In this document: piece by piece, positions 6,172 to 33,724 of the stretch
Layout of the letters: every line of letters starts with the position of its first letter
Numbering within the stretch: position 1 is the first letter of the stretch
Assembly: GCA_963665665.1 (NCBI GenBank)
Contig: OY762428.1
Span: 2,848,001 to 2,912,000, forward strand
From: Candidatus Kapaibacterium sp.
GTDB taxonomy: Bacteria; Bacteroidota; Ignavibacteria; Kapaibacteriales; UBA2268
Reading direction: 5' to 3'
DNA: 64,000 bases
Notes under the pieces: model-generated
What the model was told of the DNA's origin: nothing
What the model saw: the letters and a program-made list of their open reading frames with translations, nothing else
Database searches by the model: none
Translations under genes and position numbers: made by a program

Positions 6172-7152
6172 ATGGAAGATCCCAAATATAGTCAGATTCA
6201 TTGCGCTTTATATATCTATGATAAATTGCGGTCGGGCGGCGAGTATTCTACGGTGGATTTTCAGGATATGCTGAGAAATGAGAAGAATCTTATTGTTTCT
6301 GACAGAACGCTGCGCAGGTATATCAACGAAATCAAGCTTTACATTGGTTCCCTGAAAAGAATCGGAAATAAGTACTGGAAGATGGAAAGGCAGTTAAGAA
6401 AGCAGGGCGCTAAGATCAGGCTGAATTCGGAGCAGTTGCTGTCGTTCCATATTTTAAAATCTCACCTCAGGCAGTACAAAAATACCGTGATCGAGGAGGG
6501 AATAATTGAACTGGAAAAACTGCTCGACAGGTTTGCGCCCGGCAATGTTTTCGAATCTGAAGGAATTTTCAGAGATAAGAATATAGGGCAGTATGATTAT
6601 ACCCGTGATGATATTGTTTTGCGCCGCCTGCTGAAATTTATTCCCGAAAAAAGCTGGGTTTTGGTGGAATACAAAATGGCGGGCAGGGATAAAATTTCGA
6701 AATTCAGATGCTACCCGCGTATGATGTTTGAATTCAAAGGTGGCGTTTATGTGGTTGTTTATGTAAGCGGCAAGTCGGCGGGGCACAGGGCGCTTGCTCT
6801 GCATAATATCGAATCGGTTGAAAAAATTGAGAAGCGGAAAGCCGATATTCCTGATTTCAATTTCGGCGAATGGTCGAAGGAAAGATTCGGCGTTTTCTGG
6901 GGCGATACCCGGAAGATTAAACTGCTGATAAAAAAGAAATATAAGCGCTATTTCGAAAACAGAACATGGCACGCTACCCAGCGCCTTACCACCGATGCCG
7001 GGGGGAATATGATCCTGACGATGAATGCCCCGGTTGTTCCCGACCTTGTATCCTGGATTCTTTCCTGGCATGAAGCAATTACTGTGATTGAACCGCAGGA
7101 ACTGAAAGACAATGTGATTGATGCCCTGAAGAAAAGCCTGGAGAATTATTAG
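6172..7152 (+). CDS. HTH-WYL-WCX transcriptional regulator (WYL1)
   Basis: N-terminal wHTH (VSDRTLRRYI), WYL region (YPRMMFEFKGGVYVV), RFGVFWG, WCX (WHATQ...SWILSW...VIEPQEL). Confidence 0.88.
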   Translation: MEDPKYSQIHCALYIYDKLRSGGEYSTVDFQDMLRNEKNLIVSDRTLRRYINEIKLYIGSLKRIGNKYWKMERQLRKQGAKIRLNSEQLLSFHILKSHLRQYKNTVIEEGIIELEKLLDRFAPGNVFESEGIFRDKNIGQYDYTRDDIVLRRLLKFIPEKSWVLVEYKMAGRDKISKFRCYPRMMFEFKGGVYVVVYVSGKSAGHRALALHNIESVEKIEKRKADIPDFNFGEWSKERFGVFWGDTRKIKLLIKKKYKRYFENRTWHATQRLTTDAGGNMILTMNAPVVPDLVSWILSWHEAITVIEPQELKDNVIDALKKSLENY

Positions 7153-8612: not shown

Positions 8613-9593
8613 TCACCCCTCCAGATTCTTCAGCGCTTCTTTATGCATGCTTATCAGTTCATCCCGCAATTTTTCGGGTTTAACGGAGCTAATGCAGGAA
8701 CTCCAGCTTATCAGCCATGATTTCAGTTCCGGGCTTAGCGGAACCAGCATTTCCAGAGACAGGCTGCCGTCCTCGTTATCTTTGAATTTCTGTGTCTGAT
8801 GCCAGAACCTGTTCTCGAAATATTTCCTGCTGTCGGCATTTATTATAATTTCCACTTTTTCGGGTTCGCCCCAGAAAACGCCGAACCTGATTGCCGAGAA
8901 TTTTTCCTGGTTGAAATCCGGAACTTCCACATCTTCATGCACTGCTTCCTGAATGTCCGTTATTCTGTGAATTGCCATAGCTATATAATACTGATATTCC
9001 GGGATATAAACCGCCGCGTAAAGATACCCCGCGTTCGAGAACATCCTTGCTATCCTGCCGATATAACTTTTCTGATACCCACTGCCCGATACATCGTAAT
9101 CAATTGTTACCCATTGCTTTTGCGTGATCGCTTCTATCACTTTCTTAATAATCCTGTCATGCCCGGAGTAATCATAGCTGCCGATATTTTTATCCCAGAA
9201 GAATGGCTCCCCGTCGAACACGTCGCCAACGGCGTGGCTGTCTATCTTATTAAGCAGAGCATTTATCTCTTCCTCGAAGTATGTACCCTTAAAATTTTTC
9301 AGGTTGGCCTTCAGCATATAAAGCGAAAGCAGGTCGTTTTCACGGAAAATTATACCCGAACGTAAATTTTCATCAATATGCCAGATGGTTGTTCTTCCTT
9401 CTTCGGTAAATGTTATTTCCGGGGCAATCGCCAGGAGTGTTTGCATGTCCCGCTGTATTGTTCTCGGGGAATAATCTCCTCCATGATCATTAAGCAAACG
9501 CTCTCGTATTTCACTTGTTTTCAGTTTTTTACCGCTAAGCAGCATTCTGTAAATTGCGAAAATTCTTTCTACCTGGGAATTGATTTCATTCAT
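8613..9593 (-). CDS. HTH-WYL-WCX transcriptional regulator (WYL2)
   Basis: SPRTIQRDM HTH; DKNIGSYDY; RFGVFWG; YFENRFWHQTQ; SWLISW; clear paralog of WYL1. Confidence 0.88.
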   Translation of the reverse strand: MNEINSQVERIFAIYRMLLSGKKLKTSEIRERLLNDHGGDYSPRTIQRDMQTLLAIAPEITFTEEGRTTIWHIDENLRSGIIFRENDLLSLYMLKANLKNFKGTYFEEEINALLNKIDSHAVGDVFDGEPFFWDKNIGSYDYSGHDRIIKKVIEAITQKQWVTIDYDVSGSGYQKSYIGRIARMFSNAGYLYAAVYIPEYQYYIAMAIHRITDIQEAVHEDVEVPDFNQEKFSAIRFGVFWGEPEKVEIIINADSRKYFENRFWHQTQKFKDNEDGSLSLEMLVPLSPELKSWLISWSSCISSVKPEKLRDELISMHKEALKNLEG

Positions 9594-10814: not shown

Positions 10815-12977
10815 GTGAATTACAGTATTATTCAAGAATTAGTATCTGATTTTCAGAAAAAGTATAAGAAAGAGCCAAACGCTTTATTTAAAGATGACGA
10901 CATATTTTTAGAACAACTCAATGAAATTTTTGAAGAAATACTTGATGAACCATTTGAGAGTATTGAAGATGCTGAAGATTTGTTTTTAATTACAAAAAAT
11001 TATTTTGGAAAAGGAAAAATTAGGGTTATTGTCATTCATACAGATTATTTATTAATCAGATCATTTAAAGAAAAATTTTTAGGTGGTTGGAAGATGCTTG
11101 ATGAAGAAGAATTTGAACCACTTCAAATTGACTGGTTGGATATTAAAGGTATCAAGTATCGTAAGAAGTTAAATGAATTTTGTATCAAATTTAAAAATGA
11201 GAATAATACTTTATGTTTCAATTTAGAATTAATTCTCAATGATAATTTTGATTTAAATTTTACATCGGACCTCTTTTTCTTAATTAAAGATATTGCTAAC
11301 AGAGTAAATGAAAATGATGAGACTTTCGATCAATTAATTGAAAAATACAAGAAAAAAATATCAGAAGAAAAGTATGATGTGGCTTTAAAAATTGTAAATA
11401 ATTTGATTGAAATGAAGCCTGATGATCCACTATTTTACCAATGGAAAGGAGATTGTTTATTAAAAATAACAAAGCTATCAGAATCAATTGATATGTCATT
11501 ACTGGCTTTAAAACTTTTACAAGAAATTAATGGTACTGAATTATCTGATTATAACGAAGATTATCTAAATATATATAATAATTCTAATTATAATATCGGA
11601 CTGGCCTATGATCAACTAGGAGATAAATATAATGGTCTTTGGTATATGAATAAATCGTATCATGCTTGTTTGGACAATAATACCAAAATTTTATGGAAAA
11701 AAGATTTGGATAAAGTATATTCCGATTTTATCCAAAAACTACCGGAAATTGATTATTCAGAAAGAAAATTGATTTTTATCGAAAATGGACTACCTGAATT
11801 TAAGGTCGATACTATACTGCCTTTAGATATATCTAATATGGGATCAATAAAATTTCCTCCATCACATCCCAAAAAAGGTGAACTATATATCGGGCATCCT
11901 TTTAAAAATGATACATATTATCCTGTTGAAGATTATGAAAATCAGTTATTTCAAAGTCAGGTAATGGAACTGAATCATTTGCTTCAATGTCTTGGTGCAA
12001 CAGCTATAAAATCTGAAAATGCAAAAATTGTTACTGACAATGGGGCTGTGTCAATGAGCAGCAATAGTAAATCGAATGGGGAATCAGAACATAGTATGGA
12101 TGGTAAGGCAAAAATTCATGATGTTGACGCATCTACTCAGAATAAATCGAATGTTGAAATCCAAGATGATAAAAAATATTGTAGTTCTTCTGATCAACAA
12201 AAATCTATGACAACAGAGCAGCATTTTAATCCAAAGATTAAGCCATATATACCAGATGATTTAGTTTGGTATCACCACAACGATACATGGCAAAGTTTGG
12301 CAAAACAGAGACTACAGGGAGGCTTATTGATGCATGAAATGACAATTTCCACAAAGAACCTCAGCATAATTAATGAAAATGAAAGAAATAAAATCAATGA
12401 AGATTTCAAAAAGTTAGTAAGTGCAGGGTATTCAAATTTGTTGGTTTCAGGGAAACTTTCGGCTAGTACAAACACACAAACTGAAAGGACAAGTGATGTT
12501 TCATATGCAATTTCTAAAAGTGAACATTTTGAACAAAAAATACAAATTGAATTTGCTCCAATTGATGATTTAACTGAAGAACCGTCAATTTATAAAAAAA
12601 ATGAAATTCAACATGAAAATATACTACAACAAGATTTAACCGAGAATGAAAAAGAATATCAGGAATTAATTGAAGATGCTATCGAAGATGGAGAAATTGA
12701 TGACTCTACAAGAAAATTCTTAGATAAAAGATTAAAACGATTAAATATTACACCGGAAAGAGCAACAGAGATAGAAAATTTAATTTTAAATGCTAATAAT
12801 TATACAGAGGATGAACTTGATTATATCGATATGCTTGAAGATGCGATAGATGATGGAATTATCGATGAAGCAGAAAGAAAATTCTTAGATAAAAGAATGC
12901 AAAGATTAAATATTACTAAAGATAGAGCTTCGGAGATAGAAAGAAAGTTTATACAAAATTTGAACAAAAATTCTTAG
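10815..12977 (+). CDS. TPR-containing protein with S/T-rich central domain and two C-terminal TerB-like helical repeats
   Basis: TPR (YDVALKIVNNLIEMKPDDPLFYQWKG); tandem EDAIEDGEIDDSTRKFLDKR / EDAIDDGIIDEAERKFLDKR. Confidence 0.65.
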   Translation: MNYSIIQELVSDFQKKYKKEPNALFKDDDIFLEQLNEIFEEILDEPFESIEDAEDLFLITKNYFGKGKIRVIVIHTDYLLIRSFKEKFLGGWKMLDEEEFEPLQIDWLDIKGIKYRKKLNEFCIKFKNENNTLCFNLELILNDNFDLNFTSDLFFLIKDIANRVNENDETFDQLIEKYKKKISEEKYDVALKIVNNLIEMKPDDPLFYQWKGDCLLKITKLSESIDMSLLALKLLQEINGTELSDYNEDYLNIYNNSNYNIGLAYDQLGDKYNGLWYMNKSYHACLDNNTKILWKKDLDKVYSDFIQKLPEIDYSERKLIFIENGLPEFKVDTILPLDISNMGSIKFPPSHPKKGELYIGHPFKNDTYYPVEDYENQLFQSQVMELNHLLQCLGATAIKSENAKIVTDNGAVSMSSNSKSNGESEHSMDGKAKIHDVDASTQNKSNVEIQDDKKYCSSSDQQKSMTTEQHFNPKIKPYIPDDLVWYHHNDTWQSLAKQRLQGGLLMHEMTISTKNLSIINENERNKINEDFKKLVSAGYSNLLVSGKLSASTNTQTERTSDVSYAISKSEHFEQKIQIEFAPIDDLTEEPSIYKKNEIQHENILQQDLTENEKEYQELIEDAIEDGEIDDSTRKFLDKRLKRLNITPERATEIENLILNANNYTEDELDYIDMLEDAIDDGIIDEAERKFLDKRMQRLNITKDRASEIERKFIQNLNKNS

Positions 12978-13071: not shown

Positions 13072-13094
13072 CTACCCCGCTTGCAGCGGGGTAG
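13072..13094. terminator. GC-rich hairpin, probable terminator
   Basis: CTACCCCGC-TTGCA-GCGGGGTAG flanked by A and T runs. Confidence 0.55.
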
Positions 13095-13140
13095 CCTTAA
13101 ATTTTTCACCCCACCCCACCACAAAAAGGATCTCAAAACC

Positions 13141-15798
13141 ATGCAACAAATAAACACAGAAAAACAGGAAATATTAAATATTGACGGAAACGTGCTCGTG
13201 GCGGCTAATCCCGGTACTGGGAAAACGCTGCTGCTTGCCCATAAATATCTGTCACTTCTGCAAAAGGGTGTTGCCCCGGAAGATATCCTTTGCCTGACTT
13301 TTACCCAAAAGGCTAAGGACGAGATGGAGGAAAGGATCGTCAATTTAGTTAATGATAATGCTATCCCGGCTGATGTTAATAAAATTTGTGTGCATACTTT
13401 CCATTCCTATGCCGTGGAAAATATCGAGGTGCAGAATCTTGTTCCCCCAACTTTGCTGCGCTACACTATTATCAGGTATCTGAAGCGGAATAAATCGTTC
13501 AACTATGGCGATGATTATATTGCCAATCATATTGTCCCCCTTATTGAAAGGCATATAACTTACCTGAAAACTTTCGGAATACTCCCCGACATGATAGATA
13601 TTGCCAAAGTGCAGTCCCTGATTGAAAGTTACGGCAATTATTCGAAAGAGGTTCTCGACAGCTATGCTGAAATTTTTGTGGATGTATTCCGGGAATACGA
13701 AAAGTTCAAATTTAACAAGGGAATTGATTACGCCGATATGCTTATCATGTTCCATGAACTGAAACACAAGCCCCTGTTCGAGTATGTTCTGATAGATGAG
13801 TTGCAGGACGTAAACCCGCTTGAAGCAAAAATGGCAAGGGATTCCGGCAATGTTTATTTTGCCGTGGGAGATCCCAAGCAGTCCATTATGGGTTTTCAGG
13901 GCGGAACAATTGCCAACTTCGAATATTTTCAGGATTCGCAGCAAAGGGTACTTTCCGAGAATTTCAGGTCCGGCAATGAAATAATAGATTATGCCAGGAC
14001 ATTTTATTCAACATACACACAAAACCATGAGCATACAGAGCAGCTGGAATCCCTGGCTAATAATAATATCGATCCGCTGCCGCTGCCGAAACTTTACAGG
14101 GTGGAAAAAGATAAAGCTTTTTCCCGGGCCTGCGACCTGGCCGGGGAATTATACGCCGACGGAAAGAAAGTAGCCCTTATCGCCCGCACGAATAATCATG
14201 TTTCCCAAATATCCGGTGAATTGGAAAAACGCGGCATCAGTCATTCATCCACATTCTTTGCCGCTTCGGATAAAACCAAAAACATGATCATCGAATTTCT
14301 GAAAACATTCTTCACCAAAGAGCCCGAACAGGTGATAAGTTCATTTTTCACTCCCTTTTCTCCTGTCAGCCTGGAGAAAGCCTCGATAATTTCTGATCAG
14401 TCCGGCCTGACCCTGAATGATATTTTCGAACAGGCCCCCGAGATAGAAAAGCTGATAGAACCGGTAAAAACAATCGAGGATCTGAACGATGTATTTAAAA
14501 AGATTATCCTGCCGGTGTCGATAACTTACGGACGGCAATATTTTGATACTGCTATGGCTATTTACAACACTTTCGAGGAAGCCGTTAAAAATATTAAGTT
14601 CAAAAGCTATGAAAGATTTATCGATTACCTGAATGCCGCTGTAACTGACAATAGCAGCAATGCGCCGGAAAAGCAGATAGTTGTAACCACCATACACAAG
14701 GCAAAGGGCAAGGAATGGGATCACGTGATTTATCTTGGGTCGGAAATTAAAAGCAGGCCTACCTTCCAGGATAAAGTATTCGGGAAAATAATTGAAGCCC
14801 TTGATATTTCAATTGAAGAGGAATTGGAGGAAGAGGAATTGCGCCTTGATTTTGTTGCTTTTACAAGGGCAAAGGAAAGCCTGCATCTTGTTCCCGCAGG
14901 TGCCCGGAATTACAATGTCGGCGATATTGAAAAAGAAAGCAAAGAGGCAGAAACCGCCGAATACGAAACAGTATTCTGCGAGAACATGAAAAGGGCCTAC
15001 ACATTGTTTCTGAACAGGGAATATGATCTTGCTAAGGAAGTATTGAATGATGATTCGAAATGGCTGATACAGCATATCGAAAATCATTTCAAAAATCTGA
15101 AACACCTTTCATTTTCCGCCATAAGCGATAATGCCTTTGAATACCTGAAAGAAAGAATACTGAAGCTGAAATTTTTCTCGAAGGCTCTTTCTCTCGGTTC
15201 CGAGGTGCATGACATAGCCGAGAAAATACTGAACGGCGAAAGCCCTGATTATGATCCGAAGCTACAGCCGTATATCGATAATATCAGAGAAGTGATTGGC
15301 AAAATTTCAGTCCGCTACCCGGAAGTATCCGGCGCTGAGATGAAACTGGATATTAAGCTCAGCGATATTTTCGACATCGATGATGATATTAAGTTTATCG
15401 GTTATATCGATGCTGTTTTCAGAAATGGAGATCAATACCTTTTGCTGGACTGGAAAACAAATATTGCTAAAAGCCAAGAGCACAACAAATATCGCAAGCA
15501 GCTGGAAACCTACAGGCAGGGCTTTGCTTTCCAGATGAATATACCGCTTGAAAATATCCGAACAGCCATAGCCTATATCGGCCTGCGCGAAAGGGTGAAT
15601 ACCGGCCTGGTAAACTATGAACTGGCCTATGACACCAAACCCGGAGCAGTATTCAGCAATTTCACTTCGGTAGTCCGAACACTAACGGAATGGAGAAAAG
15701 ACGTAAACATCTTCTGCCGTGAATTCATCGATCAGAATATCGAAGGCGAATACCTCTGGCGCGCAATAGCAGAGCAATTGCAGAAGGAGATGGGGTAG
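13141..15798 (+). CDS. UvrD/PcrA-family SF1 helicase fused to C-terminal PD-(D/E)xK (RecB/AddA-like) nuclease
   Basis: ANPGTGKT, LTFTQKA, TFHS, LIDELQD, VGDPKQSIMGFQG, ENFRS, TIHKAKGKEW, VAFTRAK; nuclease GYIDAV..LLDWKT..QLETY. Confidence 0.9.
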   Translation: MQQINTEKQEILNIDGNVLVAANPGTGKTLLLAHKYLSLLQKGVAPEDILCLTFTQKAKDEMEERIVNLVNDNAIPADVNKICVHTFHSYAVENIEVQNLVPPTLLRYTIIRYLKRNKSFNYGDDYIANHIVPLIERHITYLKTFGILPDMIDIAKVQSLIESYGNYSKEVLDSYAEIFVDVFREYEKFKFNKGIDYADMLIMFHELKHKPLFEYVLIDELQDVNPLEAKMARDSGNVYFAVGDPKQSIMGFQGGTIANFEYFQDSQQRVLSENFRSGNEIIDYARTFYSTYTQNHEHTEQLESLANNNIDPLPLPKLYRVEKDKAFSRACDLAGELYADGKKVALIARTNNHVSQISGELEKRGISHSSTFFAASDKTKNMIIEFLKTFFTKEPEQVISSFFTPFSPVSLEKASIISDQSGLTLNDIFEQAPEIEKLIEPVKTIEDLNDVFKKIILPVSITYGRQYFDTAMAIYNTFEEAVKNIKFKSYERFIDYLNAAVTDNSSNAPEKQIVVTTIHKAKGKEWDHVIYLGSEIKSRPTFQDKVFGKIIEALDISIEEELEEEELRLDFVAFTRAKESLHLVPAGARNYNVGDIEKESKEAETAEYETVFCENMKRAYTLFLNREYDLAKEVLNDDSKWLIQHIENHFKNLKHLSFSAISDNAFEYLKERILKLKFFSKALSLGSEVHDIAEKILNGESPDYDPKLQPYIDNIREVIGKISVRYPEVSGAEMKLDIKLSDIFDIDDDIKFIGYIDAVFRNGDQYLLLDWKTNIAKSQEHNKYRKQLETYRQGFAFQMNIPLENIRTAIAYIGLRERVNTGLVNYELAYDTKPGAVFSNFTSVVRTLTEWRKDVNIFCREFIDQNIEGEYLWRAIAEQLQKEMG

Positions 15799-16004
15799 AA
15801 ATTACTGTATATGTGCTAGTACAATTAAAGCGAAACTTGGAAGTATAAGAATTTATAGTGATTAAAATAATGAAAAAGTTATACAAATTAAACCATTAAA
15901 TAATTATTGTATTTTTACTATAAAATGAGTAATTTTTAGAATTGTTTGAACGCTTACAATATTTATTGATTTTTTAGTTTTCTACACTTATTATTAATAT
16001 TATT

Positions 16005-17141
16005 ATGAATAATATATCAGATTTAATTGCAAAAGAAACAAGTAGTAAAAACTACAAATCATATAAGTATTGTATCGAAAATATTGAGGTTCCAAAAGTA
16101 CAATATGATGATAAACAAGATATCATTATTAAAAAAATTGGTGAGACAGACAAGGGATTAAAAAAAACAAAATCATTGAGAGAATATGCAAAAAAAATTA
16201 ATGGTAATCCATTATTTAAATACTTCCTTGATGGTTCAAGAAGAACTTATAAAGTTGATGATGTAGCCTTTAACAACAAAATTTATCCTATTATTGCTGG
16301 TCAAATAGGAGTTGGAGTTTGTTATCGTGAGAATAGTGATTTATTTAAAGCTTATAAATTTCTTAATCCATTAGCTATTAGTTTGCCAAGTGTTTTGAAT
16401 TCTGTAAGTAAAAATGATAAATTGTATTTCAACCAATTGTTGGAAAAAATAAATCAATTAAATATTTTAAAAAATCAAAATTTAAAATTTAATAGCATCT
16501 TGCCATATAGGTATAATGCTTCAAAAGAAGATGATAAATATGAAGACAGAGGCGTTGCGAAAATTCAAGATGAAATGATACGATTGGAAAAAATAACAGT
16601 AAAAGAGTTAGTTAGAGAAAAAAAACTTAATAAAAATGCATTTCTAATAAAGGATGGCTCTTTAGAATATGAATGGGATAAAAGCGATTTTAAAAATATT
16701 TCTTCGATTAAATCAAACTACGCAAATGTTGTTGGTGTTTCCAAAGCATTTAATCCAGAATCATTATCATCATATAATAAAAAAATTTCCCAAATAATTG
16801 CTGATCTATCAGAATTCCATAGAACGCCTGCATTTATGTATGAAACAACTCGAATTCCAGATGTAAAATTTGCAGTTTGGTATTTGAGGATAAGAAAAAC
16901 CGTAAATCCATTTGATGGGATTGTAAAAATTGAAAAAATTCTTGTTTGGGATAAAGAAGAAGAAGATGGATTAGATTCAGATGAAATTGATTTAATTAGT
17001 GCAAATATTATCAATGAAAGAAATCCTGTATGCTATGGGAAAGATAATAGATGGGCTAAACACTTATACCCCATATTTTTAACAGAGAATTATATTAAAA
17101 GTAAATATCTAAATGATTTTCATTTTATTAGTTTATTTTAG
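16005..17141 (+). CDS. NurA-like RNase H-fold nuclease
   Basis: FLDGSRR, LIKDGSL, VGVSK, WYLRIR, RWAKHLYPIFLTENYIKS; directly upstream of a HerA-like ATPase. Confidence 0.7.
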   Translation: MNNISDLIAKETSSKNYKSYKYCIENIEVPKVQYDDKQDIIIKKIGETDKGLKKTKSLREYAKKINGNPLFKYFLDGSRRTYKVDDVAFNNKIYPIIAGQIGVGVCYRENSDLFKAYKFLNPLAISLPSVLNSVSKNDKLYFNQLLEKINQLNILKNQNLKFNSILPYRYNASKEDDKYEDRGVAKIQDEMIRLEKITVKELVREKKLNKNAFLIKDGSLEYEWDKSDFKNISSIKSNYANVVGVSKAFNPESLSSYNKKISQIIADLSEFHRTPAFMYETTRIPDVKFAVWYLRIRKTVNPFDGIVKIEKILVWDKEEEDGLDSDEIDLISANIINERNPVCYGKDNRWAKHLYPIFLTENYIKSKYLNDFHFISLF

Positions 17142-17152
17142 AGGGTATTAAT

Positions 17153-18826
17153 ATGAGCAAAATAATCGGGAAAGTGGCGGCGACAGAAAAAGCTCCAACA
17201 ACAATTGATTTTTTTTATTTTTGGACTGATAAAAATAGAATATTGAATCCTTTTGATGTTGTAAAAGTTAAACATATTAATAATTCGACAACTTTTGGAG
17301 TTATTGAAGAAATATCTCATATTACTGACTCTGCTAGCTATTTAAGTTGTTATATATCAAATGATTTTGGTAATGTTGATTTGCAACCAAATTCAAATCG
17401 TATAGGACTAAATTATGTTAAAGCAAAGGTTGTTGGAAATAATGATAATATTTATACACCAGTGTTAAATGGGAGTGATGTAAGTATCGCAGATTCAAAT
17501 GAAATTTTGCAAGCTTTAGGGTTAGATAAAATTAAGAATCCGATGCCTTGTGGATATATTGAAATGTATAGGGGAGAGGATAAAAAAATATTACCTGTAA
17601 ATTTCAACGCACAATTTTTAATTGGGCCTGAAGGTGCACATTTGAATATTTCGGGGATATCAGGTCTTGCAGCAAAAACTTCATATTCTATGTTTTTACT
17701 AAAGGCTATTCAAGAAAAATATGGAAATCAATCTGATGATGATGATATTGATTCCGTTGCATTTGTTGTATTTAATGTAAAGGGAAGGGATCTTTTAGCG
17801 ATTGACGAACCCAATACTAATTTAAGTGAAAAGGATAAAGCAATTTATAAAGATATGATGCAACTTAAAACTAACCCATTTGAAAATGTTACATACTTTT
17901 ACCCATATGCAGAACATTCTACTTCAAAAACATTAAGTTATGGAGAAAAAAATGATATTGAAGCACAAATTGACAACAACAAAGCTTTTAAGTATAAATA
18001 TATATACGAAGAAGATAAGGAAAATTTAGAACTACTTTTTGCAAATGTTGAAGATTCCTCAGGGACAATGGGAGATATTATTAATTTTATTGTTAATGGG
18101 AATGGGAAATTTGGTGATGTTGATAGTTGGAATACATTAATGCAGACTGTTTCTGATTATAAACAATCAGGAAGAAAAGATGGAGATAAAGATATTTCAG
18201 TTCTTAGTTGGAGAAAATTCAGTAGAATAATTAGCAAGTCTTTATCACATTCGATATTTCAAAAAAGTATTGTTTCTGGAAAAAATGAACAAAGACTAAA
18301 AGATGCTGTTTCAAATATTAAGAAAAATGAAGTTCAAGTCATTGATATTGCAAAATTAGATGAGGATACTCAAGCTTTTGTTTTTGGTGATGTTGTAAGA
18401 TCTATTTATGACTTAAAGTTAGGGCAAGACAACAGAGATGAAAATGATATACCTTCGAGAATTATTATTTTTATAGATGAATTGAATAAATATGCATCGA
18501 AAGATGTTCCAAAAAATTCACCTATTTTGAGACAAATTTTGGATATTGCAGAAAGAGGCCGTTCTTTAGGGATTATCTTGTTTTCAGTTGAGCAATTTAA
18601 AAGTGCTATTCACGATAGAGTTAAAGGTAACTGTGCTACTAATGCTTTTGGTAGAACAAATGCAATTGAAATTTCAAAAAGTGATTATCATTTTGTTCCT
18701 CAGGTTTATAAAAATATGATGACAAGATTATCTCCCGGTGAATATATTTTAGAGCATCCGGTATTTCGCTCATTATTGAATATAAAATTTCCACTTCCTT
18801 TATATAAACAATTTCCAAATGGTTAA
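17153..18826 (+). CDS. HerA/FtsK-family ATPase (bacterial HerA clade)
   Basis: N-terminal HAS-barrel-like region; HLNISGISGLAAKTSY (variant Walker A), FNVKGRDL, IFIDELNKY, ERGRSLGIILFSVEQ. Confidence 0.85.
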   Translation: MSKIIGKVAATEKAPTTIDFFYFWTDKNRILNPFDVVKVKHINNSTTFGVIEEISHITDSASYLSCYISNDFGNVDLQPNSNRIGLNYVKAKVVGNNDNIYTPVLNGSDVSIADSNEILQALGLDKIKNPMPCGYIEMYRGEDKKILPVNFNAQFLIGPEGAHLNISGISGLAAKTSYSMFLLKAIQEKYGNQSDDDDIDSVAFVVFNVKGRDLLAIDEPNTNLSEKDKAIYKDMMQLKTNPFENVTYFYPYAEHSTSKTLSYGEKNDIEAQIDNNKAFKYKYIYEEDKENLELLFANVEDSSGTMGDIINFIVNGNGKFGDVDSWNTLMQTVSDYKQSGRKDGDKDISVLSWRKFSRIISKSLSHSIFQKSIVSGKNEQRLKDAVSNIKKNEVQVIDIAKLDEDTQAFVFGDVVRSIYDLKLGQDNRDENDIPSRIIIFIDELNKYASKDVPKNSPILRQILDIAERGRSLGIILFSVEQFKSAIHDRVKGNCATNAFGRTNAIEISKSDYHFVPQVYKNMMTRLSPGEYILEHPVFRSLLNIKFPLPLYKQFPNG

Positions 18827-18832
18827 TAGAAT

Positions 18833-20392
18833 ATGATTGAAGAAACAAACAAAACTAGAATTGGTAAAGATGTAATTGAGTCTTTAACATTAGCTATGTA
18901 TGATGATCCGATGTTCATTTACAGAGAGTATATTCAAAATGCCGCTGATCAAATAGATATAGCTTTGGAAGAAGGGATGATTTCATCAAAGGAAGAATGC
19001 AGGATTGAAATAAAAATTGATAAACCTGGTAAAATAATTACAATTTCTGACAATGCTACAGGTGTTCAAAAAGAAAATGTGTTATCAGTATTAAAAAGTA
19101 TCGCACAAGGTGTTAAAGATAGAACAAAGCATAAAGGGTTCAGAGGAATTGGTCGTCTTGGGGGATTGGCATACTGTGATAAATTGATTTTTGAGACAAG
19201 TTTTAAAGGTGAAAATGTTAAATCTATTCTTATATGGAATGCAAAAGAATTAAAGCAAATAATTAATGATAGGACTAAAATTGAGGATGCGACAGAAGTT
19301 ATTGATTTAATTACTGATCATGATTTTAAAGAAGAAAATGAGGATAAAAGATATTTTAAGGTAATATTAAAAAACGTAACAAACGATATACTTTTAAATC
19401 ACGAAGAAGTATACAATTACTTATCAATGGTTGCGCCTGTTCCTTATAATAAGGGATTTTTCTTTCAGGAAAAAATTTATGCCAGAGCTAAAGAATATCA
19501 TTTTCCTATAGATGAATATAATTTGTATATCAATAATAATCAAGTATTTAAAGAATATACGACTACGATTTATGAAGGAGAAAAGCATAATAAAAAGAGA
19601 AGTGATGATGAAATTTTTGACATAGATTTTTTTGATATAAAAAATAAATTCGAAGAAATTTTGTGTTGGGGATGGTATAGTGTTTCCACTTTAAAAAAGC
19701 AGATGCCTCCAGTTAATATTGCTAGAGGAATTCGATTAAGAAAAGGTAATATCCAAATAGGTAATGAGAAACAACTAGTAAAACTATTTAAAGAACCTAG
19801 GGGTTCATTCTATTTTTTTGGAGAAGTTCATGCTACTAGTTCTGATTTAATTCCTAATGCAAGAAGAGATTATTTTACTGAAAATAAAATTTTTAAAATT
19901 TTTGAAAAAGGACTCGAATCAAAATTTAGGGAATTACATGAATTATATCATTTCTCGTCAAGTACAAGAAGTGAGAAGAAAAAAATTGATAACCTAATTA
20001 CCTTTACAGAAGAATTTAACAAAAAAGTAGAAAAGGGGTTTACAAGGCCACAGGAGAAGGAAGAATATGAAGATAAATTAAAAAAATACAAAGAGGATGC
20101 AGAAAAAGCAAGTATCAAAATTGAAAAAATCAAGAATAATGTCGCTAGTGATAAAACTAAAAAAAAGATTGTTGAAAAAATTGCAGCTGATATTAAAGTT
20201 CGTACACCAGAAACAAACAAGATAACAAATAAAAAACCAAAATTATTAACAGATAATCTCCAAAAACTCAATAGGCACGATAGAAAATTAGTTGGTAAAA
20301 TATTGTCAATTATCGATAATATTTTAAAAAAGGATTTGTCTGATAATGTTAAACAAAAAATTATTGAAGAACTTAATAAATCGAAAAATTGA
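18833..20392 (+). CDS. GHKL (Hsp90/MORC-like) ATPase with coiled-coil tail
   Basis: YREYIQNAAD (N-box), ISDNATG (G1), GFRGIGRLGG (G2), IPNARRDYF (S5-like). Confidence 0.85.
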   Translation: MIEETNKTRIGKDVIESLTLAMYDDPMFIYREYIQNAADQIDIALEEGMISSKEECRIEIKIDKPGKIITISDNATGVQKENVLSVLKSIAQGVKDRTKHKGFRGIGRLGGLAYCDKLIFETSFKGENVKSILIWNAKELKQIINDRTKIEDATEVIDLITDHDFKEENEDKRYFKVILKNVTNDILLNHEEVYNYLSMVAPVPYNKGFFFQEKIYARAKEYHFPIDEYNLYINNNQVFKEYTTTIYEGEKHNKKRSDDEIFDIDFFDIKNKFEEILCWGWYSVSTLKKQMPPVNIARGIRLRKGNIQIGNEKQLVKLFKEPRGSFYFFGEVHATSSDLIPNARRDYFTENKIFKIFEKGLESKFRELHELYHFSSSTRSEKKKIDNLITFTEEFNKKVEKGFTRPQEKEEYEDKLKKYKEDAEKASIKIEKIKNNVASDKTKKKIVEKIAADIKVRTPETNKITNKKPKLLTDNLQKLNRHDRKLVGKILSIIDNILKKDLSDNVKQKIIEELNKSKN

Positions 20393-22299
20393 TGAAAAAT
20401 GTTGGCAAAAGACGAGTTATATTAATTGAACCAAATTATAAGAACAAATATCCTCCAATTGGATTAATGAAACTTGCGACATATCACCGAAAAATTGGAT
20501 ATGAAGTAGTCTTCTATAAAGGAGATTTAAAGAATTATATTCACCTTGATATTTATACAGACTTACTTTTCAAACTCAAAAAAATTGACAATGGGGTTTT
20601 ATGGCAAGAATATAAATCATTATTAATCAATTATATTAAAACTGGTAAAAACGAATATTTTGAAGAATTGGTAATACTTTCAAAATATGGTATTCTTGTA
20701 AAGGAGTGTTTAAAATATTATAGAAACTACTATTACTCAAAAGAATATTTAAATTTCCCAAAATGGGATAGAGTTTGTGTTACTACACTGTTTACATTTA
20801 ATTGGAATATTACGATTGAGACAATTAATTTTGCTAAAACAATTGTCAAGGATATCAAACAAATTTTTGTCGGTGGTGTATTAGCTACTGTTTTAGCAGA
20901 AGAGCTTGAGAAAGAAACAGGTATTAAGCCTCACAAAGGTCTTTTAAATAAACCTAAGATTATTGATAAAGATAATGAAATTATTATTGACGAACTACCT
21001 CTTGATTATTCGATTCTAGATGAGATTGATTATAAATATCCTGAAAATGATGCTTATTATAGTTATGTAACTAGAGGATGTATAAGAAAATGTAAGTTTT
21101 GTGCTGTATGGAAGATCGAACCAAAATTCGAACAATATATCTCAATTAAAAATAACATCGATAAAGCAAAATTAATATATGGAGAAAAAAGGAACTTACT
21201 TTTATTAGACAATAACGTACTTGCTTCAAATCAATTTCCAAAAATTATCAAAGAAATTAAAGCATGTGGTTTTTTTAAGGGTGCAAAATATATTGAACCA
21301 AATTATTTAGATATTGCAGTGGAAAATCTCAAAAATTGTATAAATGATAAAGCATATATAAATAAAAGTTTTGAATTGTATCACTATCTATTAAATAAAT
21401 TAAAGGGAGATAAACAACAAGAACTTTATAACCTTCTCAATGAATATAATTTATTAAACATTGATACGGCAACAAAAGAAAATATATTATTAGTTTATTT
21501 AGAAGTAAAGGACTTATTTGAGAAACATAGAAATAAAACAAAGAAATTGAGGTACGTTGATTTTAATCAAGGTGTTGACGCCAGATTAATTAATGAGGAT
21601 AATATGCGGCTATTAAGTGAAATCCCAATTAAACCGTTAAGGATTGCATTTGATAATATTGCATACAAAGATATATATATTAAGGCTATTCAATTGGCAA
21701 AAAAGTATGGAATAAATGATCTCTCCAACTATTTATTATATAATGAAAATGATAAGCCATCGGAATTATATGAGAGGTTAGAAATAAATGTTCTTCTATC
21801 TGAGGAGTTAAACATTAGTATATATTCATTTCCTATGAAATATCATCCGATATCTGGAGAAAAATTTTTAACTCGTGATTATCTCGGATTACATTGGAAT
21901 AGAAAATATATTAGAGCCATTCAAACGATTTTAAATTCAACTAAAGGAAAAATTGGAAAAGGTGTAAGCTTCTTTTATGAAGCTTTTGGCAATAATCTAA
22001 ATGAATATCATAAAATTTTAATAATGCCGGAAACCTATATATTATATCGTTTTTTCTTTAGAGATATCGGATTTACTTCTAAATGGTGGCAAGACTATAA
22101 TAATTTATCTATTAATCAAAAAAATAATGCGTTGGATATAATAAAAACTAACGAGTTTAATAATATTGAGAAATATACAAATAGTTATGTTATTAAATCA
22201 TTTATCAAAGAACATTATTTAATTAGTCGAAATGATATTGTAAATCCAAAATCAAAAATTTATAAATTAAAGGAAAAATACAATAGAAATAAAAAATAA
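20392..22299 (+). CDS. Radical SAM enzyme with N-terminal B12-binding-like domain
   Basis: YPPIGLMKLATYH, FVGGVLAT, TRGCIRKCKFCAV (CxxxCxxC), LLDNN, VDFNQGVDARL, LRIAFD; TGATG coupling with the upstream gene. Confidence 0.85.
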   Translation: MKNVGKRRVILIEPNYKNKYPPIGLMKLATYHRKIGYEVVFYKGDLKNYIHLDIYTDLLFKLKKIDNGVLWQEYKSLLINYIKTGKNEYFEELVILSKYGILVKECLKYYRNYYYSKEYLNFPKWDRVCVTTLFTFNWNITIETINFAKTIVKDIKQIFVGGVLATVLAEELEKETGIKPHKGLLNKPKIIDKDNEIIIDELPLDYSILDEIDYKYPENDAYYSYVTRGCIRKCKFCAVWKIEPKFEQYISIKNNIDKAKLIYGEKRNLLLLDNNVLASNQFPKIIKEIKACGFFKGAKYIEPNYLDIAVENLKNCINDKAYINKSFELYHYLLNKLKGDKQQELYNLLNEYNLLNIDTATKENILLVYLEVKDLFEKHRNKTKKLRYVDFNQGVDARLINEDNMRLLSEIPIKPLRIAFDNIAYKDIYIKAIQLAKKYGINDLSNYLLYNENDKPSELYERLEINVLLSEELNISIYSFPMKYHPISGEKFLTRDYLGLHWNRKYIRAIQTILNSTKGKIGKGVSFFYEAFGNNLNEYHKILIMPETYILYRFFFRDIGFTSKWWQDYNNLSINQKNNALDIIKTNEFNNIEKYTNSYVIKSFIKEHYLISRNDIVNPKSKIYKLKEKYNRNKK

Positions 22300-22626: not shown

Positions 22627-23007
22627 GCTTCCCGAGCGTTCCCCCGAGCTTCCCGAGCATTACCCCGTGCCTGCCGAGCGTTCCCTCATGCTTTCCGAGC
22701 ATTCCCTCGTACTTCCCGAGCGTTCCCTCGTGCTTTCCGAGCTTTCTCCAGAGCTTCCCGAGCGTTCCCCCGAGCTTTCCGAGCATTCCCCCGTGCTTTC
22801 CGAGCATTCCCCCGAGCCTGCCGAGCATTCCCCCGAGCTTCCCGAGCGTTCCCCCGAGCTTCCCGAGCGTTCCCCCGAGCTTCCCGAGCGTTCCCCCGAG
22901 CTTCCCGAGCGTTCCCCCGAGCTTTCCGAGCGTTCCCCCGAGCTTTCCGAGCCTTCCCTCGTGCTTCCCGAGCCTTCCCCCAAGCTTTCCGAGCTTTCTC
23001 CAGAGCC
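22627..23007. repeat. Tandem array A: ~18 degenerate copies of 21-bp GCTTCCCGAGCGTTCCCCCGA
   Basis: Read directly; 7-aa periodicity in every ORF frame. Confidence 0.95.
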
Positions 23008-23023
23008 TGATTATCGCTGATAT

Positions 23024-23258
23024 ATGTCATCTTAGCGTTGGGATGTGCCGTCTTAACGTTGGTTCGTGTCATCTTAGCCTTGGTTTGTGTTATCTTAGCC
23101 TTGGTATGTGTCATCTTAGCCTTGGTTCGTGTCGTCTTAGCCTTGGTATGTGTCGTCTTAGTCTTGGTATGTTACGTCTTAGCCTTGGTATGTGTCGTCT
23201 TAGCCTTGGTTCGTGTCGTCTTAGCCTTGGTTTGTGTCATTTTAGCGTTGGTTTGTGC
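23024..23258. repeat. Tandem array B: ~11 degenerate copies of 21-bp TGTCGTCTTAGCCTTGGTATG
   Basis: Read directly; sequence unrelated to array A but same 21-bp period. Confidence 0.95.
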
Positions 23259-23626: not shown

Positions 23627-24637
23627 TCAATCCCTTGGTTCAGGTGTTGGAATATTATACTCCTTCATCCCTTCCTTTAGATTCTTCTTTATCCTGTCGG
23701 CCAGTTCGAGTGGTTCCAGGACTTTTATTACGCCGGTCCAGCTCATTATCCATGATTCGAAGTCCTTTACGAGGGGGACGGTCATTTCCAGTATCATGTT
23801 GCCGTTTTTATCTTTGCTGATCTTCTGTGAGTTGTGCCAGAAACGCTTTTCGAAATACTGTGTGAATTCCTTTTTTATAAGCAGTTTTACGTTTGCCGGT
23901 TTGCCGTGATAAACGCCGAATCTTTCTTTGCTCCACTCGTTGAAGTCGAAAGGAAGGATTTTATCGCTTACTTTTTCGCAGGGGGATATTTGGCTTATGT
24001 TTTGTATCAGCAGAACCCTGTGCTCGTCCACTTTGCCGCAGGTGAACACGACAGCGTAGAGGTTGCCTTTGTTCTCGAACATTGTTCTTGGCAGGCATTT
24101 GAACCTGCTTTTCTTTTTTCCGTCTGATGACAGGTATTCAACTTCCACCCATTGCTTTTCGGCGATATGCCTTATCAGGGGCCTGATTACCAGGTCTTCC
24201 TGTGTGTAGTCGTAGTAGCCGATGTTTTTATTCCATAGCATGCTGTCCATGCGGAATACCTCGCCGGGGAAAAGTTTGTCCAGCTTTTTGTCCAGCTCTT
24301 CAATGCCTTCGGCAATCACCGTTTTTTTGAAATGCTTGATATAGGCTTTCAGCATGTAGTATGAAAGCATTTCGTTCTGCTGGATTCTCACCGTTTTCGT
24401 CGTATTTCCGGTGATCCCCATATATTCCCAGATTCTTTCCTTATGGCTGTAGTCGCGAAAATCCACCAGATTATGCTCAAACATCAGGGCAAGGTCTCTT
24501 TGTATTGATTTTTTCTCTGCTGACAGGCCTTCGCCGTTCAGGTAATTTATTATATCGCTTACCGTTCCGATATGTTCCTTATTGAAAAATTTCAACAGCC
24601 ATAATATTCTGTCGGCTTTTCCCGGTTTCTTTAGCAT
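23627..24637 (-). CDS. HTH-WYL-WCX transcriptional regulator (WYL3; start moved to ATG 24637)
   Basis: KSIQRDL HTH; NKNIGYYDY; EWSKERFGVYHG; RFWHNSQ; SWIMSW; GGAG RBS before MLKKPG. Confidence 0.88.
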   Translation of the reverse strand: MLKKPGKADRILWLLKFFNKEHIGTVSDIINYLNGEGLSAEKKSIQRDLALMFEHNLVDFRDYSHKERIWEYMGITGNTTKTVRIQQNEMLSYYMLKAYIKHFKKTVIAEGIEELDKKLDKLFPGEVFRMDSMLWNKNIGYYDYTQEDLVIRPLIRHIAEKQWVEVEYLSSDGKKKSRFKCLPRTMFENKGNLYAVVFTCGKVDEHRVLLIQNISQISPCEKVSDKILPFDFNEWSKERFGVYHGKPANVKLLIKKEFTQYFEKRFWHNSQKISKDKNGNMILEMTVPLVKDFESWIMSWTGVIKVLEPLELADRIKKNLKEGMKEYNIPTPEPRD

Positions 24638-24688
24638 TGCTGACTCCAAATAAAAAAAATATAATATTTCAACGGCTGCAAATGTCAT

Positions 24689-24721
24689 TCGACAAATAAT
24701 GTCCCTCAAAATTTACATTCG
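24689..24721 (+). promoter_or_regulatory. Putative WYL operator (TCGACA-AATAA-TGTCCC) plus -7-like element TACATTCG
   Basis: GACA-N5-TGTC palindrome between WYL3 and the divergent lipoprotein gene; 8-nt gap. Confidence 0.55.
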
Positions 24722-32374: not shown

Positions 32375-33724
32375 ATGCCTGAAAATCAAAACATAGAATG
32401 GAAAAAATCCTGGAAAGATGAATATCTGAAATGGATTTGCGGCTTTGCAAATGCTGAAGGCGGGAAATTATACATTGGGAAAAATGATAACGGTGAAATT
32501 TCCGGCCTGGAAAATTCCAAAAAGCTTTTGCAAGATATACCGAATAAGATCAGGGATATTTTAGGTATCGTGGTTGAAGTGAATCTTATTAAAGAAAACG
32601 AAAAGGAATATTTGGAGATCATTGTTGATAAATACCCGTTCCCGGTTAGCTATAAAGGACAATATCATTTCAGGAGCGGTTCAACTAAGCAGGAGCTTAA
32701 GGGTGCGGCTCTGGATAAATTCCTTTTGAAAAAAACAGGTAAACGCTGGGACAGCGTTCCGATGCACGATATTGAAATTTCGGATTTCAGTAATGATACG
32801 ATTGAACGATATAAAAATATGGCTTTTGATAGTAGAAGGTCCCAAAAAGAGATATTAACCAACAGTAAAGAATTACTGCTGGAAAACCTAAATCTGCTTG
32901 ATGGCCTGTATTACAAAAGGGCGGCTGTGCTTTTATTCCATAAAAATCCAGAAAAATATTTTACAGGAACCAGCATCAAGATCGGTTTTTTCCGGACTGT
33001 TGATGATCTGATTTACCAGGATATTGTTTCCGGAAATTTATTTGACCAGGCAGAGAATGCTTTGGATCTGCTATTGACAAAATATCTAAAAGCATATATA
33101 AGCTACAATGGTATTAACAGAGTTGAAAAATTCCCTTATCCTGTGGAGGCGCTAAGGGAAGCTTTGCTGAATGCGATTGTCCATAAAGATTATGCCACGG
33201 GAACACCAATTCAAATAAGGGTTTATGACAATAGAATCGTATTTTGGAATGATGGCACTTTACCTGAAGGATGGGATGTCGATCAGCTGTTAAATGAGCA
33301 CCCTTCAAAACCTTTCAATCCTGATATTGCAAATGCCTTCTTCCGTGCCGGGCTTGTGGAATCCTGGGGCAGGGGCATAAAGAAGATCAGAAAGGAATGC
33401 CTTGAATACGGTCTTCCTGAACCGCGTTTCAGATATGATGTCTCAGGGCTTTGGGTGGAATTGATACTAAACAGTGCCGGTTCGGATAAGGGTTCGGATA
33501 AGGGTTCGGATAAGGGTTCGGATAAGGGTTCGGATAAGACATCTGATAAAGTTCTTCAATTGATGATGGAAAATGACATTATTACTATATCTGAACTTGC
33601 TAATAGTTTAAAATTATCTACTAGAACGATTGAAAAACACATATCAAGATTGAAGGATCAAGGACTTCTAAAAAGGATTGGTTCAAAGAAATTCGGCAAG
33701 TGGAAAGTTGATATCGATAAGTGA
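32375..33724 (+). CDS. AlbA_2/Schlafen domain + RecG-C-like ATP-binding domain + HTH protein
   Basis: ENQNIEWK, ICGFANAEGGKLYIG, ALREALLNAIVHKDY, PFNPDIANAF, ESWGRG, C-terminal HTH. Confidence 0.88.
   Translation: MPENQNIEWKKSWKDEYLKWICGFANAEGGKLYIGKNDNGEISGLENSKKLLQDIPNKIRDILGIVVEVNLIKENEKEYLEIIVDKYPFPVSYKGQYHFRSGSTKQELKGAALDKFLLKKTGKRWDSVPMHDIEISDFSNDTIERYKNMAFDSRRSQKEILTNSKELLLENLNLLDGLYYKRAAVLLFHKNPEKYFTGTSIKIGFFRTVDDLIYQDIVSGNLFDQAENALDLLLTKYLKAYISYNGINRVEKFPYPVEALREALLNAIVHKDYATGTPIQIRVYDNRIVFWNDGTLPEGWDVDQLLNEHPSKPFNPDIANAFFRAGLVESWGRGIKKIRKECLEYGLPEPRFRYDVSGLWVELILNSAGSDKGSDKGSDKGSDKGSDKTSDKVLQLMMENDIITISELANSLKLSTRTIEKHISRLKDQGLLKRIGSKKFGKWKVDIDK
33479..33538 (+). repeat. In-frame 12-bp tandem repeat (GGTTCGGATAAG x5; GSDK linker)
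   Basis: Read directly. Confidence 0.95.

Follow-up and report, generated by a model that had tools for sequence, protein, structure and literature searches.

A stretch of 64,000 nt from Candidatus Kapaibacterium sp. (assembly GCA_963665665.1, contig OY762428.1, positions 2,848,001–2,912,000, forward strand; henceforth the window) carries a horizontally mobile, self-contained set of four genes, g1 to g4, encoding a NurA-like nuclease, a HerA-type ATPase, an Hsp90-like GHKL ATPase and a radical S-adenosylmethionine (SAM) enzyme. The cassette is of a kind in which ATPase–nuclease defence modules are coupled to a discriminating enzyme. It very probably takes part in conflicts with mobile DNA, and its most likely role is defence of the cell against DNA that invades it. 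Among 80 related loci, 63 have NurA-HerA 5′ of the radical SAM gene, and all 74 informative ones (those in which no contig end falls directly at that gene) have a GHKL gene there, so this is no chance neighbourhood. Across the wider family GHKL and radical SAM form the invariable pair, and NurA-HerA belongs to a set of interchangeable nuclease modules, each usually accompanied by its own GHKL paralogue. Reasoning from these comparisons and by analogy with described systems, we tentatively propose that the radical SAM enzyme of this defence cassette may supply a self mark shared by the modules, a proposal that we regard as quite possible and far from assured.

The four genes and their predicted products

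The cassette consists of four open reading frames (ORFs) on the plus strand, 16005–17141, 17153–18826, 18833–20392 and 20389–22299. Their junctions can be read directly from the sequence: the TAG stop of g1 is followed by 11 nt and the ATG of g2, the TAA stop of g2 by 6 nt and the ATG of g3, and the TGA stop of g3 overlaps the ATG at 20392 in the string TGATG. A TTG at 20389 is an alternative start of g4 that gives a protein of 636 aa; since the database copy of the window protein has 635 aa, the start is most likely the ATG (Table 1). The GC content of the genes is 0.259 (g1), 0.294 (g2), 0.275 (g3) and 0.252 (g4), compared with 0.428 for the UvrD/PD-(D/E)XK gene at 13081–15798 and 0.370 for the whole window. 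The AT-rich spacer that precedes g1 is the probable promoter region of the operon. Promoter and terminator scans of the operon returned matches no better than those in shuffled sequence, Rfam found no riboswitch or other RNA near it (two tRNA matches in the window in total), and no direct repeats flanking the cassette as a mark of insertion were found.

Table 1. Features of the four-gene cassette, in window coordinates
Feature	Position	Strand	Remarks
Upstream spacer, AT-rich, 206 nt	15799..16004	+	GC 0.184; no other 5′ gap exceeds 11 nt
g1, NurA-like RNase H-fold nuclease, 378 aa	16005..17141	+	Predicted structure and Foldseek
g1 Asp76, first DGS motif (FLDGSRR)	16230..16232	+	Invariant in 36/36
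g1 Asp217, second DGS motif (IKDGSLEY)	16653..16655	+	Invariant in 36/36
g2, HerA-type hexameric translocase ATPase, 557 aa	17153..18826	+	Profile match to HerA
g2 Walker A GISGLAAKT, Ala replacing the usual Gly before Lys	17654..17680	+	
g2 Walker B Asp442-Glu443	18476..18481	+	Invariant in 36/36
g3, Hsp90-like GHKL ATPase with variable Lys-rich helical tail, 519 aa	18833..20392	+	Pfam HATPase_c_3
g3 GHKL N-box (E32..N36..D39)	18926..18949	+	Invariant in 36/36
g4, radical SAM enzyme with Rossmann-like (B12-binding-like) N-domain, 635 aa	20392..22299	+	Pfam Radical_SAM and model
g4 CxxxCxxC, C231/C235/C238 (numbered from 20389)	21079..21102	+	Invariant in 23/23

Pfam, PADLOC and NCBIfam return zero matches to g1, and its family profile finds a single, non-significant match among PDB sequences, Deinococcus NurA (7f6d_H, E 0.77). 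An AlphaFold model built on 36 homologues (pLDDT 84.7) was compared with the PDB by Foldseek and matches D. radiodurans NurA best (7f6d_G, 1.4e-10), with TM1739 (1zup), S. solfataricus NurA (2ygk) and the NurA-like chain of TdpAB (8wfd_G, 3e-5) among the further matches. At E ≤ 0.001 there are six matches, five of them to NurA proteins or TdpAB and one to the NurA-like TM1739. The acidic residues D76, D85/D86, D217, E310, E338 and D347 are invariant across the 36 sequences, and we take D76 and D217 to be the counterparts of the catalytic aspartates of NurA. By its model, g1 is a NurA-fold nuclease.

The family profile of g2 matches D. radiodurans HerA in the PDB (7f6d_B, E 1e-46) and nothing else at E ≤ 1. 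PADLOC adds weak matches to mad8 (3.6e-7) and HerA (4.5e-5) over residues 380–495, and NCBIfam a weak match to HerA (1.1e-5). Walker A residues G168, G171, K175 and T176 are invariant in 36/36 sequences, as are R468 and R470 of an ERGRSLG motif C-terminal to Walker B. By profile and motifs, g2 is a bacterial-type HerA; it belongs with the FtsK/HerA-type P-loop ATPases, having both Walker motifs and the arginine-rich ERGR. The nurA and herA genes are adjacent and co-oriented in the window, separated by the 11-nt spacer, and keep the same order in 63/80 loci.

g3 matches Pfam HATPase_c_3 (1.7e-8, 35 bits, cut-off 25), and the nearest solved sequences to its family profile are the N-domains of HtpG, TRAP1 and Hsp90, from 1.6e-10. 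Residues of the N-box, the DxGxG motif and the Gly-rich lid (E32, N36, D39, D73, G77, G102, G105 and G107) are invariant in 36/36 sequences, and the Lys-rich helical tail, residues 361–519, is the least conserved stretch among all four proteins. Longer forms of g3 are represented by two rare relatives: P0272 has ankyrin repeats (approximately residues 280–450) N-terminal to the GHKL domain, and in P0273 about 890 residues without assignment precede that domain.

g4 scores 31.2 bits against Pfam Radical_SAM (cut-off 29.5) and 20.6 bits against Pfam B12-binding, under the cut-off of 32.1. In an alignment of 23 sequences C231, C235 and C238 are the sole invariant cysteines, which excludes a second Fe-S cluster of the MiaB/RimO type, held by three cysteines near the N-terminus; a methylthiotransferase of that type was rejected as the identity of g4 because the second Cys triad is absent. 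The g4 model (pLDDT 87.3) retrieves MgmA from the PDB as top match in Foldseek (9ccb, 9e-6), then MiaB (7mjw), TsrM (6wte), CysS, OxsB (rank 20, E 6e-3) and TokK, and g4 and these fold relatives share an architecture in which a Rossmann-like N-domain is followed by the radical SAM barrel. MiaB is an enzyme without B12. On the strength of the model, g4 is a radical SAM enzyme resembling the B12-type radical SAM methylases; a viperin-like enzyme was considered and rejected, the PADLOC viperin match being absent and the fold relatives being B12-type enzymes and MiaB. Among the sequence relatives of g4, none has a solved structure. Longer, fused forms of g4 were also not found, which is weak evidence. 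Two helical insertions (approximately residues 47–125 and 306–368) are absent from plasmid and phage homologues, also rank low in conservation across the 80 loci, and may be candidate specificity elements. As to naming, the protein-atlas clusters retrieved with the g4 homologue P0066 are called only hypothetical protein, putative Radical SAM protein or Radical SAM superfamily protein, and across our sources proteins of the family are labelled 'hypothetical' or plain 'radical SAM', with the exception of one odd label.

In most respects this agrees with the sequence-only reading of the window, which had described four co-oriented genes with 11-nt, 6-nt and TGATG junctions, all of them AT-richer than the UvrD neighbour (GC 0.25–0.29 vs 0.43). 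It had also recognized an RNase H-fold NurA-like nuclease, now backed by model and Foldseek; a bacterial-clade HerA, backed by the profile match to the Deinococcus protein; and an Hsp90/MORC-like GHKL ATPase, backed by Pfam, the invariant motifs and the Hsp90-family profile matches. For the fourth gene the CxxxCxxC radical SAM enzyme stands as described, and its N-terminus is B12-binding-like in fold, resembling B12 enzymes but also MiaB, with the Pfam B12-binding score falling short of its cut-off.

Interchangeable modules and a constant pair

A scan at one genome per species yielded 555 loci with a g4 relative, of which the best 80, ranked by radical SAM similarity, were kept; eight protein families were then mapped onto these loci by tblastn and the architectures counted. 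The g4 protein family as a whole has at least 7,996 cluster representatives in the protein search. Throughout the 80 loci the radical SAM gene is single-copy and terminal, and the genes that precede it form three modules: A, NurA-HerA-GHKL1; B, ABC-C286-GHKL1, led by an ABC ATPase; and C, GHKL2-P330. The arrangement of the window, NurA-HerA-GHKL1-radical SAM, occurs in 42 loci, 5 of them near a contig end. NurA-HerA-GHKL1 plus ABC-C286-GHKL1 precedes the radical SAM gene in 9 loci (and in one more, cut at its 5′ end), and NurA-HerA-GHKL1 plus GHKL2-P330 does so in another 9, one with a split GHKL2. Two loci have the order NurA-HerA-ABC-C286-GHKL1-radical SAM, and one has NurA-HerA-GHKL2-P330-radical SAM. 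GHKL2-P330-radical SAM with NurA-HerA absent across 7 kb upstream is seen in three loci (L009, L021 and L071); one further GHKL2-P330-radical SAM locus is cut by a contig end, as are 13 loci overall, within or just 5′ of the cluster (14 counting the cut A+B locus). Two ATPase–nuclease modules are present in 12/80 loci and module C, ahead of the radical SAM gene, in 13/80, and the window has one module. The expectation that the four genes would be conserved together is met by this neighbourhood analysis, the same set recurring in related loci. The earlier view of NurA-HerA as the heart of the system has to be given up: it is a swappable module, and what stays constant is GHKL and radical SAM.

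Most carriers (61) belong by NCBI lineage to Bacteroidota; Ignavibacteriota has 5, Bacillota and Melainabacteria have 2 each, Thermodesulfobacteriota, Kiritimatiellota, Spirochaetota and Cyanobacteriota have a single one each, and 6 are unassigned. The same gene order is found across at least 8 named phyla, and one of the loci is titled Altiarchaeales, an archaeon.

The ABC ATPase of module B matches PADLOC NsnB, of the Menshen system, at 2e-63 to 5e-68, and one such ATPase matches mad3 at 3.4e-11. Its partner C286 matches PADLOC NsnC weakly (5.6e-4), has no Pfam match at E ≤ 0.01 and has one weak match to solved structures in a profile search (E 0.087). By sequence, module B is a known type of defence effector, with an NsnB-like ATPase. 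P330 is a protein of 320–370 aa that invariably lies between GHKL2 and the radical SAM gene (L003 9034–9990 and 13 other loci) and has the invariant motifs YxG..P, DG..E and NLDFC. It has no Pfam match at E ≤ 0.01, no family recurs among the 14 members even at E ≤ 5, a profile search found no solved structure, and NCBIfam offers a weak PP_RS20740-family match; with 256 representatives among 1.84 billion proteins it is rare. A Rossmann methyltransferase had been guessed from the P330 motifs and was dropped, as nothing supports it.

Quick trees of 76 GHKL1 proteins and 77 radical SAM proteins (20 of 74 forks in the latter being unresolved) indicate how the modules were assembled. All 13 GHKL1 copies that lie 3′ of C286 form a single clade (SH-aLRT 98) nested among the copies 3′ of HerA, and the GHKL therefore belongs with its own effector pair. 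On the radical SAM tree the modules are scattered: module B requires at least 10 changes for 13 carriers, module C 12 changes for 12. Read together, the trees describe a single-origin module that has been joined time and again to one or another enzyme of the radical SAM family. Such scatter implies modules that are compatible with every radical SAM enzyme in that family, and it would fit a shared mark or product better than a co-evolved protein contact.

More distant relatives are found on plasmids and phages. Twelve records of alphaproteobacterial plasmids contain a g4 homologue of 35–40% identity. In pNL1 of Novosphingobium (L081 3934–14336) a DGQHR-radical SAM-GHKL operon adjoins a PIN_8-GHKL pair, and in pR132505 of Rhizobium (L082 3789–15578) the same two units lie side by side together with a SNF2 helicase and a ParB-like gene; both regions look like a related, larger island of the modification type. 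The plasmid DGQHR protein matches TIGR03187 at 7e-45 and the DpdB and DndB models more weakly; going by the NCBIfam names and by what we recall of their biology, we assume that DGQHR proteins belong to DNA-modification systems. pNL1 encodes an additional DGQHR protein of 769 aa. Over about 390 residues g3 is 33% (E 3e-52) and 27% (E 6e-38) identical to the two plasmid GHKLs, and it is 27% identical to GHKL2 (E 9e-20), so one GHKL family travels with the g4-type radical SAM family. The temperate Marinitoga camini virus 1 (L084 4464–8290) carries a minimal radical SAM gene (360 aa) convergent with genes for HerA and NurA proteins of the cassette's own subfamily, which share 33% identity with g2 and 29% with g1, respectively. 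Close g2 relatives occur in 2 of 50,697 phage records, both times beside a radical SAM homologue. The second of these, MT836743.1 ('Bacteriophage sp.'), is an unverified 8.9-kb contig with the whole four-gene cassette; as a candidate for a phage-borne orphan enzyme it was rejected for that reason, and it is uninformative on orphan use.

The flanks of the cassette were surveyed through 138 ORFs from 23 of the 38 loci with long flanks. Integrase, transposase, relaxase, coupling-protein or conjugative-element topoisomerase genes are present, by our reading, in 10/23 flanks, other defence-type families (TIR_2, OLD-TOPRIM with UvrD, Mrr_cat, Schlafen-AlbA_2, AAA_15, Fic) in 7/23, and housekeeping genes in the remainder. 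None of the families in the 138 flanking ORFs recurs beside the cassette often enough to count as part of it.

These surroundings bear on the reading that the cassette has nothing to do with defence and serves end resection, repair or the maintenance of mobile elements, with the radical SAM enzyme repairing or processing damaged DNA. HerA-NurA is classically a resection machine (PMC12977600), and on two plasmids (L085, L086) a distant HerA, 23% identical to g2, sits in operons with SbcD and an SMC-type ATPase. The HerA-NurA resection complex (7f6d; archaeal) also provides the best sequence match of g2 and the best fold match of g1, and its genes are likewise adjacent and co-oriented. However, the pair in the cassette is mobile, low in GC and tied to GHKL and radical SAM genes. 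Mre11/Rad50 (SbcD/SbcC) were found neither in the 34 scanned ORFs of the window nor inside the cassette in any of the 80 loci, and a repair operon was rejected as an identity for the cassette on the ground that the SbcCD gene is absent. Its distribution is patchy across phyla, its GC content is foreign to the host, it is sited on mobile elements and in defence islands, and a Menshen-type effector pair can take the place of NurA-HerA. A role outside defence is, in our judgement, very improbable.

A proposed shared self mark and competing explanations

In the mechanism that we propose for the defence cassette, HerA would thread DNA into NurA, which would degrade it, with the module's own GHKL ATPase as the ATP-driven licensing switch of the nuclease. 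The radical SAM enzyme would meet the need common to all modules, discrimination of self from non-self, most likely through a covalent mark on host DNA, by analogy with the methylase of MADS and the phosphorothioation enzymes of Dnd/Tdp, which each serve several ATPase–nuclease modules. We favour a covalent DNA mark because the layout has one enzyme for many modules, as with the N6-methyladenine (m6A) of MADS, because the modules shuffle freely, because a distant branch has a DndB/DpdB-like partner, and because TdpAB sets a precedent for a NurA/HerA-like pair combined with DNA modification.

Of the systems that guide this argument, MADS (mad1–mad8) makes m6A marks and has two non-redundant ATPase–nuclease modules, MAD3-MAD4 and MAD7-MAD8 (PMC13662399). 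The likeness is that one modification function serves two ATPase–nuclease modules, and sister loci of the cassette also carry two. Unlike MADS, however, g1–g4 include no methyltransferase, kinase or other mad genes and have radical SAM and GHKL instead, and the matches to MADS models (mad8 for g2, mad3 for module B) are restricted to ATPase cores. TdpAB is a HerA/NurA-like restriction pair coupled to a DNA-modification gene in a phosphorothioate system (PMC12914056). It resembles the cassette in the fold match of g1 to TdpAB, and distant g4 relatives stand beside DndB/DpdB-like DGQHR proteins. In contrast to TdpABC/Dnd, the cassette has no match like DndA/C/D/E or TdpC in Pfam or NCBIfam, the window type lacks DGQHR, and its chemistry would be radical-based where theirs is sulfur insertion. 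Sir2-HerA and DUF4297-HerA share with the cassette the pairing of HerA with an effector in a defence context, but here the effector is NurA, the PADLOC HerA models match weakly and there are two extra enzymes. Menshen (NsnA-NsnB-NsnC) is approached by module B of the sister loci, an NsnB-like ABC ATPase with a weakly NsnC-like protein, yet a GHKL gene occupies the place of its ParB-DUF262 sensor NsnA, which is missing, and the window is without module B.

The combination of the four genes had been called unrecognized as a characterized system, which still applies within PADLOC-DB v2.0.0 (2023), where g1, g3 and g4 match 0 families and g2 has only the weak mad8/HerA matches, and within the searched literature: full-text searches, which left most subscription journals out of reach, found no description of it. 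The Menshen paper has zero occurrences of radical SAM, GHKL, HerA, NurA, HATPase and Hsp90, and a BREX survey none of NurA, GHKL, Hsp90, MORC or 'SAM radical'. In the accessible text of a phosphorothioate reappraisal radical SAM is named only in connection with DndC, and two older surveys place radical SAM in contexts unrelated to the cassette. The further suspicion that the combination might appear in comparative-genomics surveys has some substance, in the shape of a single line in a preprint of October 2026 (10.64898/2026.10.19.760177), which lists a three-gene neighbourhood of HSP90, radical SAM and PAACC, without NurA-HerA. That set may be module C (GHKL2-P330-radical SAM), with P330 as a candidate for PAACC, a likeness that goes by family name alone.

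A stronger form of the proposal is that the radical SAM enzyme installs a new DNA mark by radical chemistry, a C-methyl group or another carbon adduct, and that the GHKL ATPase reads its absence and releases the plug-in nucleases. We consider this form possible and, on balance, doubtful. Several observations weigh against a radical SAM self mark in general. We know of no radical SAM enzyme that marks DNA for self-recognition. None of the structural relatives of g4 acts on DNA, their substrates being proteins (MgmA), tRNA (MiaB), tryptophan (TsrM) and small molecules (CysS, TokK, OxsB), and Pfam and NCBIfam recognize no DNA-binding or target-recognition domain in g4. In this sample, the best 80 of 555 loci chosen by radical SAM similarity, HerA is the most conserved protein, with a mean majority fraction of 0.73 against 0.65 for radical SAM, and the pattern of the modification enzyme being the most conserved one therefore fails. 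Marinitoga camini virus 1 has no GHKL gene within 5 kb, the ankyrin fusion of a rare GHKL relative suggests protein sensing, and the flank counts, having no background control, are no test of enrichment. Finally, the preprint reads the HSP90 and radical SAM context as toxin–antitoxin-like (10.64898/2026.10.19.760177).

The main rival is a switch-and-effector system with no mark on DNA. Here the GHKL switch would sense a cue from the invader, and the radical SAM enzyme would be a regulator or antitoxin-like partner that modifies the effector, the GHKL ATPase or an invader protein, the nucleases being restrained until infection. The same preprint treats HSP90-like NTPases as switches; the top fold match of g4, MgmA, is a protein methylase; the GHKL is module-specific in the GHKL1 tree; and P0272 joins a relative of it to ankyrin repeats. 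However, modules that shuffle so freely over the radical SAM tree are awkward for a specific protein–protein regulation by that enzyme, the 11-nt, 6-nt and overlapping junctions are too tight for a conserved small substrate ORF, and the distant relatives sit with DndB/DpdB-like DGQHR proteins. The preprint neighbourhood, moreover, is linked to the cassette family by name alone. Taken together, we think this explanation rather unlikely.

Free shuffling would also fit a diffusible product, and so the radical SAM enzyme being itself the effector. Upon infection it would turn a nucleotide into a signal or an antiviral analogue, in the manner of viperins and, as has been proposed, of Ophion, and the GHKL–nuclease modules would act in parallel or respond to that molecule. 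OxsB, a B12-type radical SAM enzyme among the fold matches of g4, acts on a deoxyadenosine nucleotide. Radical SAM enzymes are also proven effectors of antiphage systems in Ophion and the prokaryotic viperins, as reported in 10.1101/2025.09.30.679545. Those enzymes are of a different radical SAM family and have other partners (PHP and PRTase in Ophion), whereas g4 has no PADLOC viperin match and is related by fold to B12-type methylases and MiaB. The g4 family is coupled to GHKL in 74/74 loci and to DndB-like proteins in distant relatives. To our knowledge, neither coupling occurs in nucleotide-analogue systems, and we regard an effector role of the enzyme as improbable.

Neighbouring genes and wider meaning

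The cassette had been placed, as a single AT-rich unit, in a nuclease-rich island. This is confirmed, and the island proves to be rich in regulators too. Within 18 kb, nuclease genes are interspersed with three WYL/WCX regulator-like genes, at 6172–7152 (plus strand), 8613–9593 (minus) and 23627–24709 (minus), a typical layout of defence islands, and a domain scan of the window around the cassette also found a PDDEXK_4 nuclease and a TerB/EcsC protein. Upstream, an AT-rich gene of 720 aa (10815–12977, GC 0.28) with a weak PDC-S48 match in its last 55 residues is followed by the UvrD helicase fused to PD-(D/E)XK (13081–15798), which has strong PADLOC matches to GajB and the RT-associated helicase (1e-40); the two are probably a separate defence unit. 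Just 3′ of the cassette are two arrays of a 21-nt tandem repeat, 22627–23006 (18.1 copies, 86% matches) and 23025–23257 (11.1 copies, 85% matches), with a GC content of 0.54 and ORFs in several frames on both strands; a plus-strand frame encodes a proline/serine-rich heptad repeat. Farther away are a protein with Schlafen-AlbA_2, HATPase_c_4 and HTH (32375–33724) and a low-GC McrBC-like pair (56239–59246), in which a PF10117 gene (1.7e-52) is followed by an AAA_5 ATPase gene with an overlapping junction. Schlafen-AlbA_2 family proteins are also encoded immediately 3′ of the cassette in two sister loci (L017 11993–13315, L042 12049–13578). Two very long ORFs of the window, both on the minus strand, span 34005–42530 (2841 aa) and 50989–56157 (1722 aa).

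If the cassette is a defence system, it would have a new enzymatic core, radical SAM plus an Hsp90-like ATPase, and would be a clean example of plug-in effectors. Gut Bacteroidales make up many of the carriers, and the system may therefore influence the traffic of phages and conjugative elements in gut communities. If the radical SAM enzyme marks DNA, its chemistry would be new among DNA modifications and could find uses in epigenetic tools. A mark made by radical chemistry, if real, would constitute a new class of epigenetic self-marking, spread over many phyla, beside SAM-dependent methylation, phosphorothioation and 7-deazaguanine.

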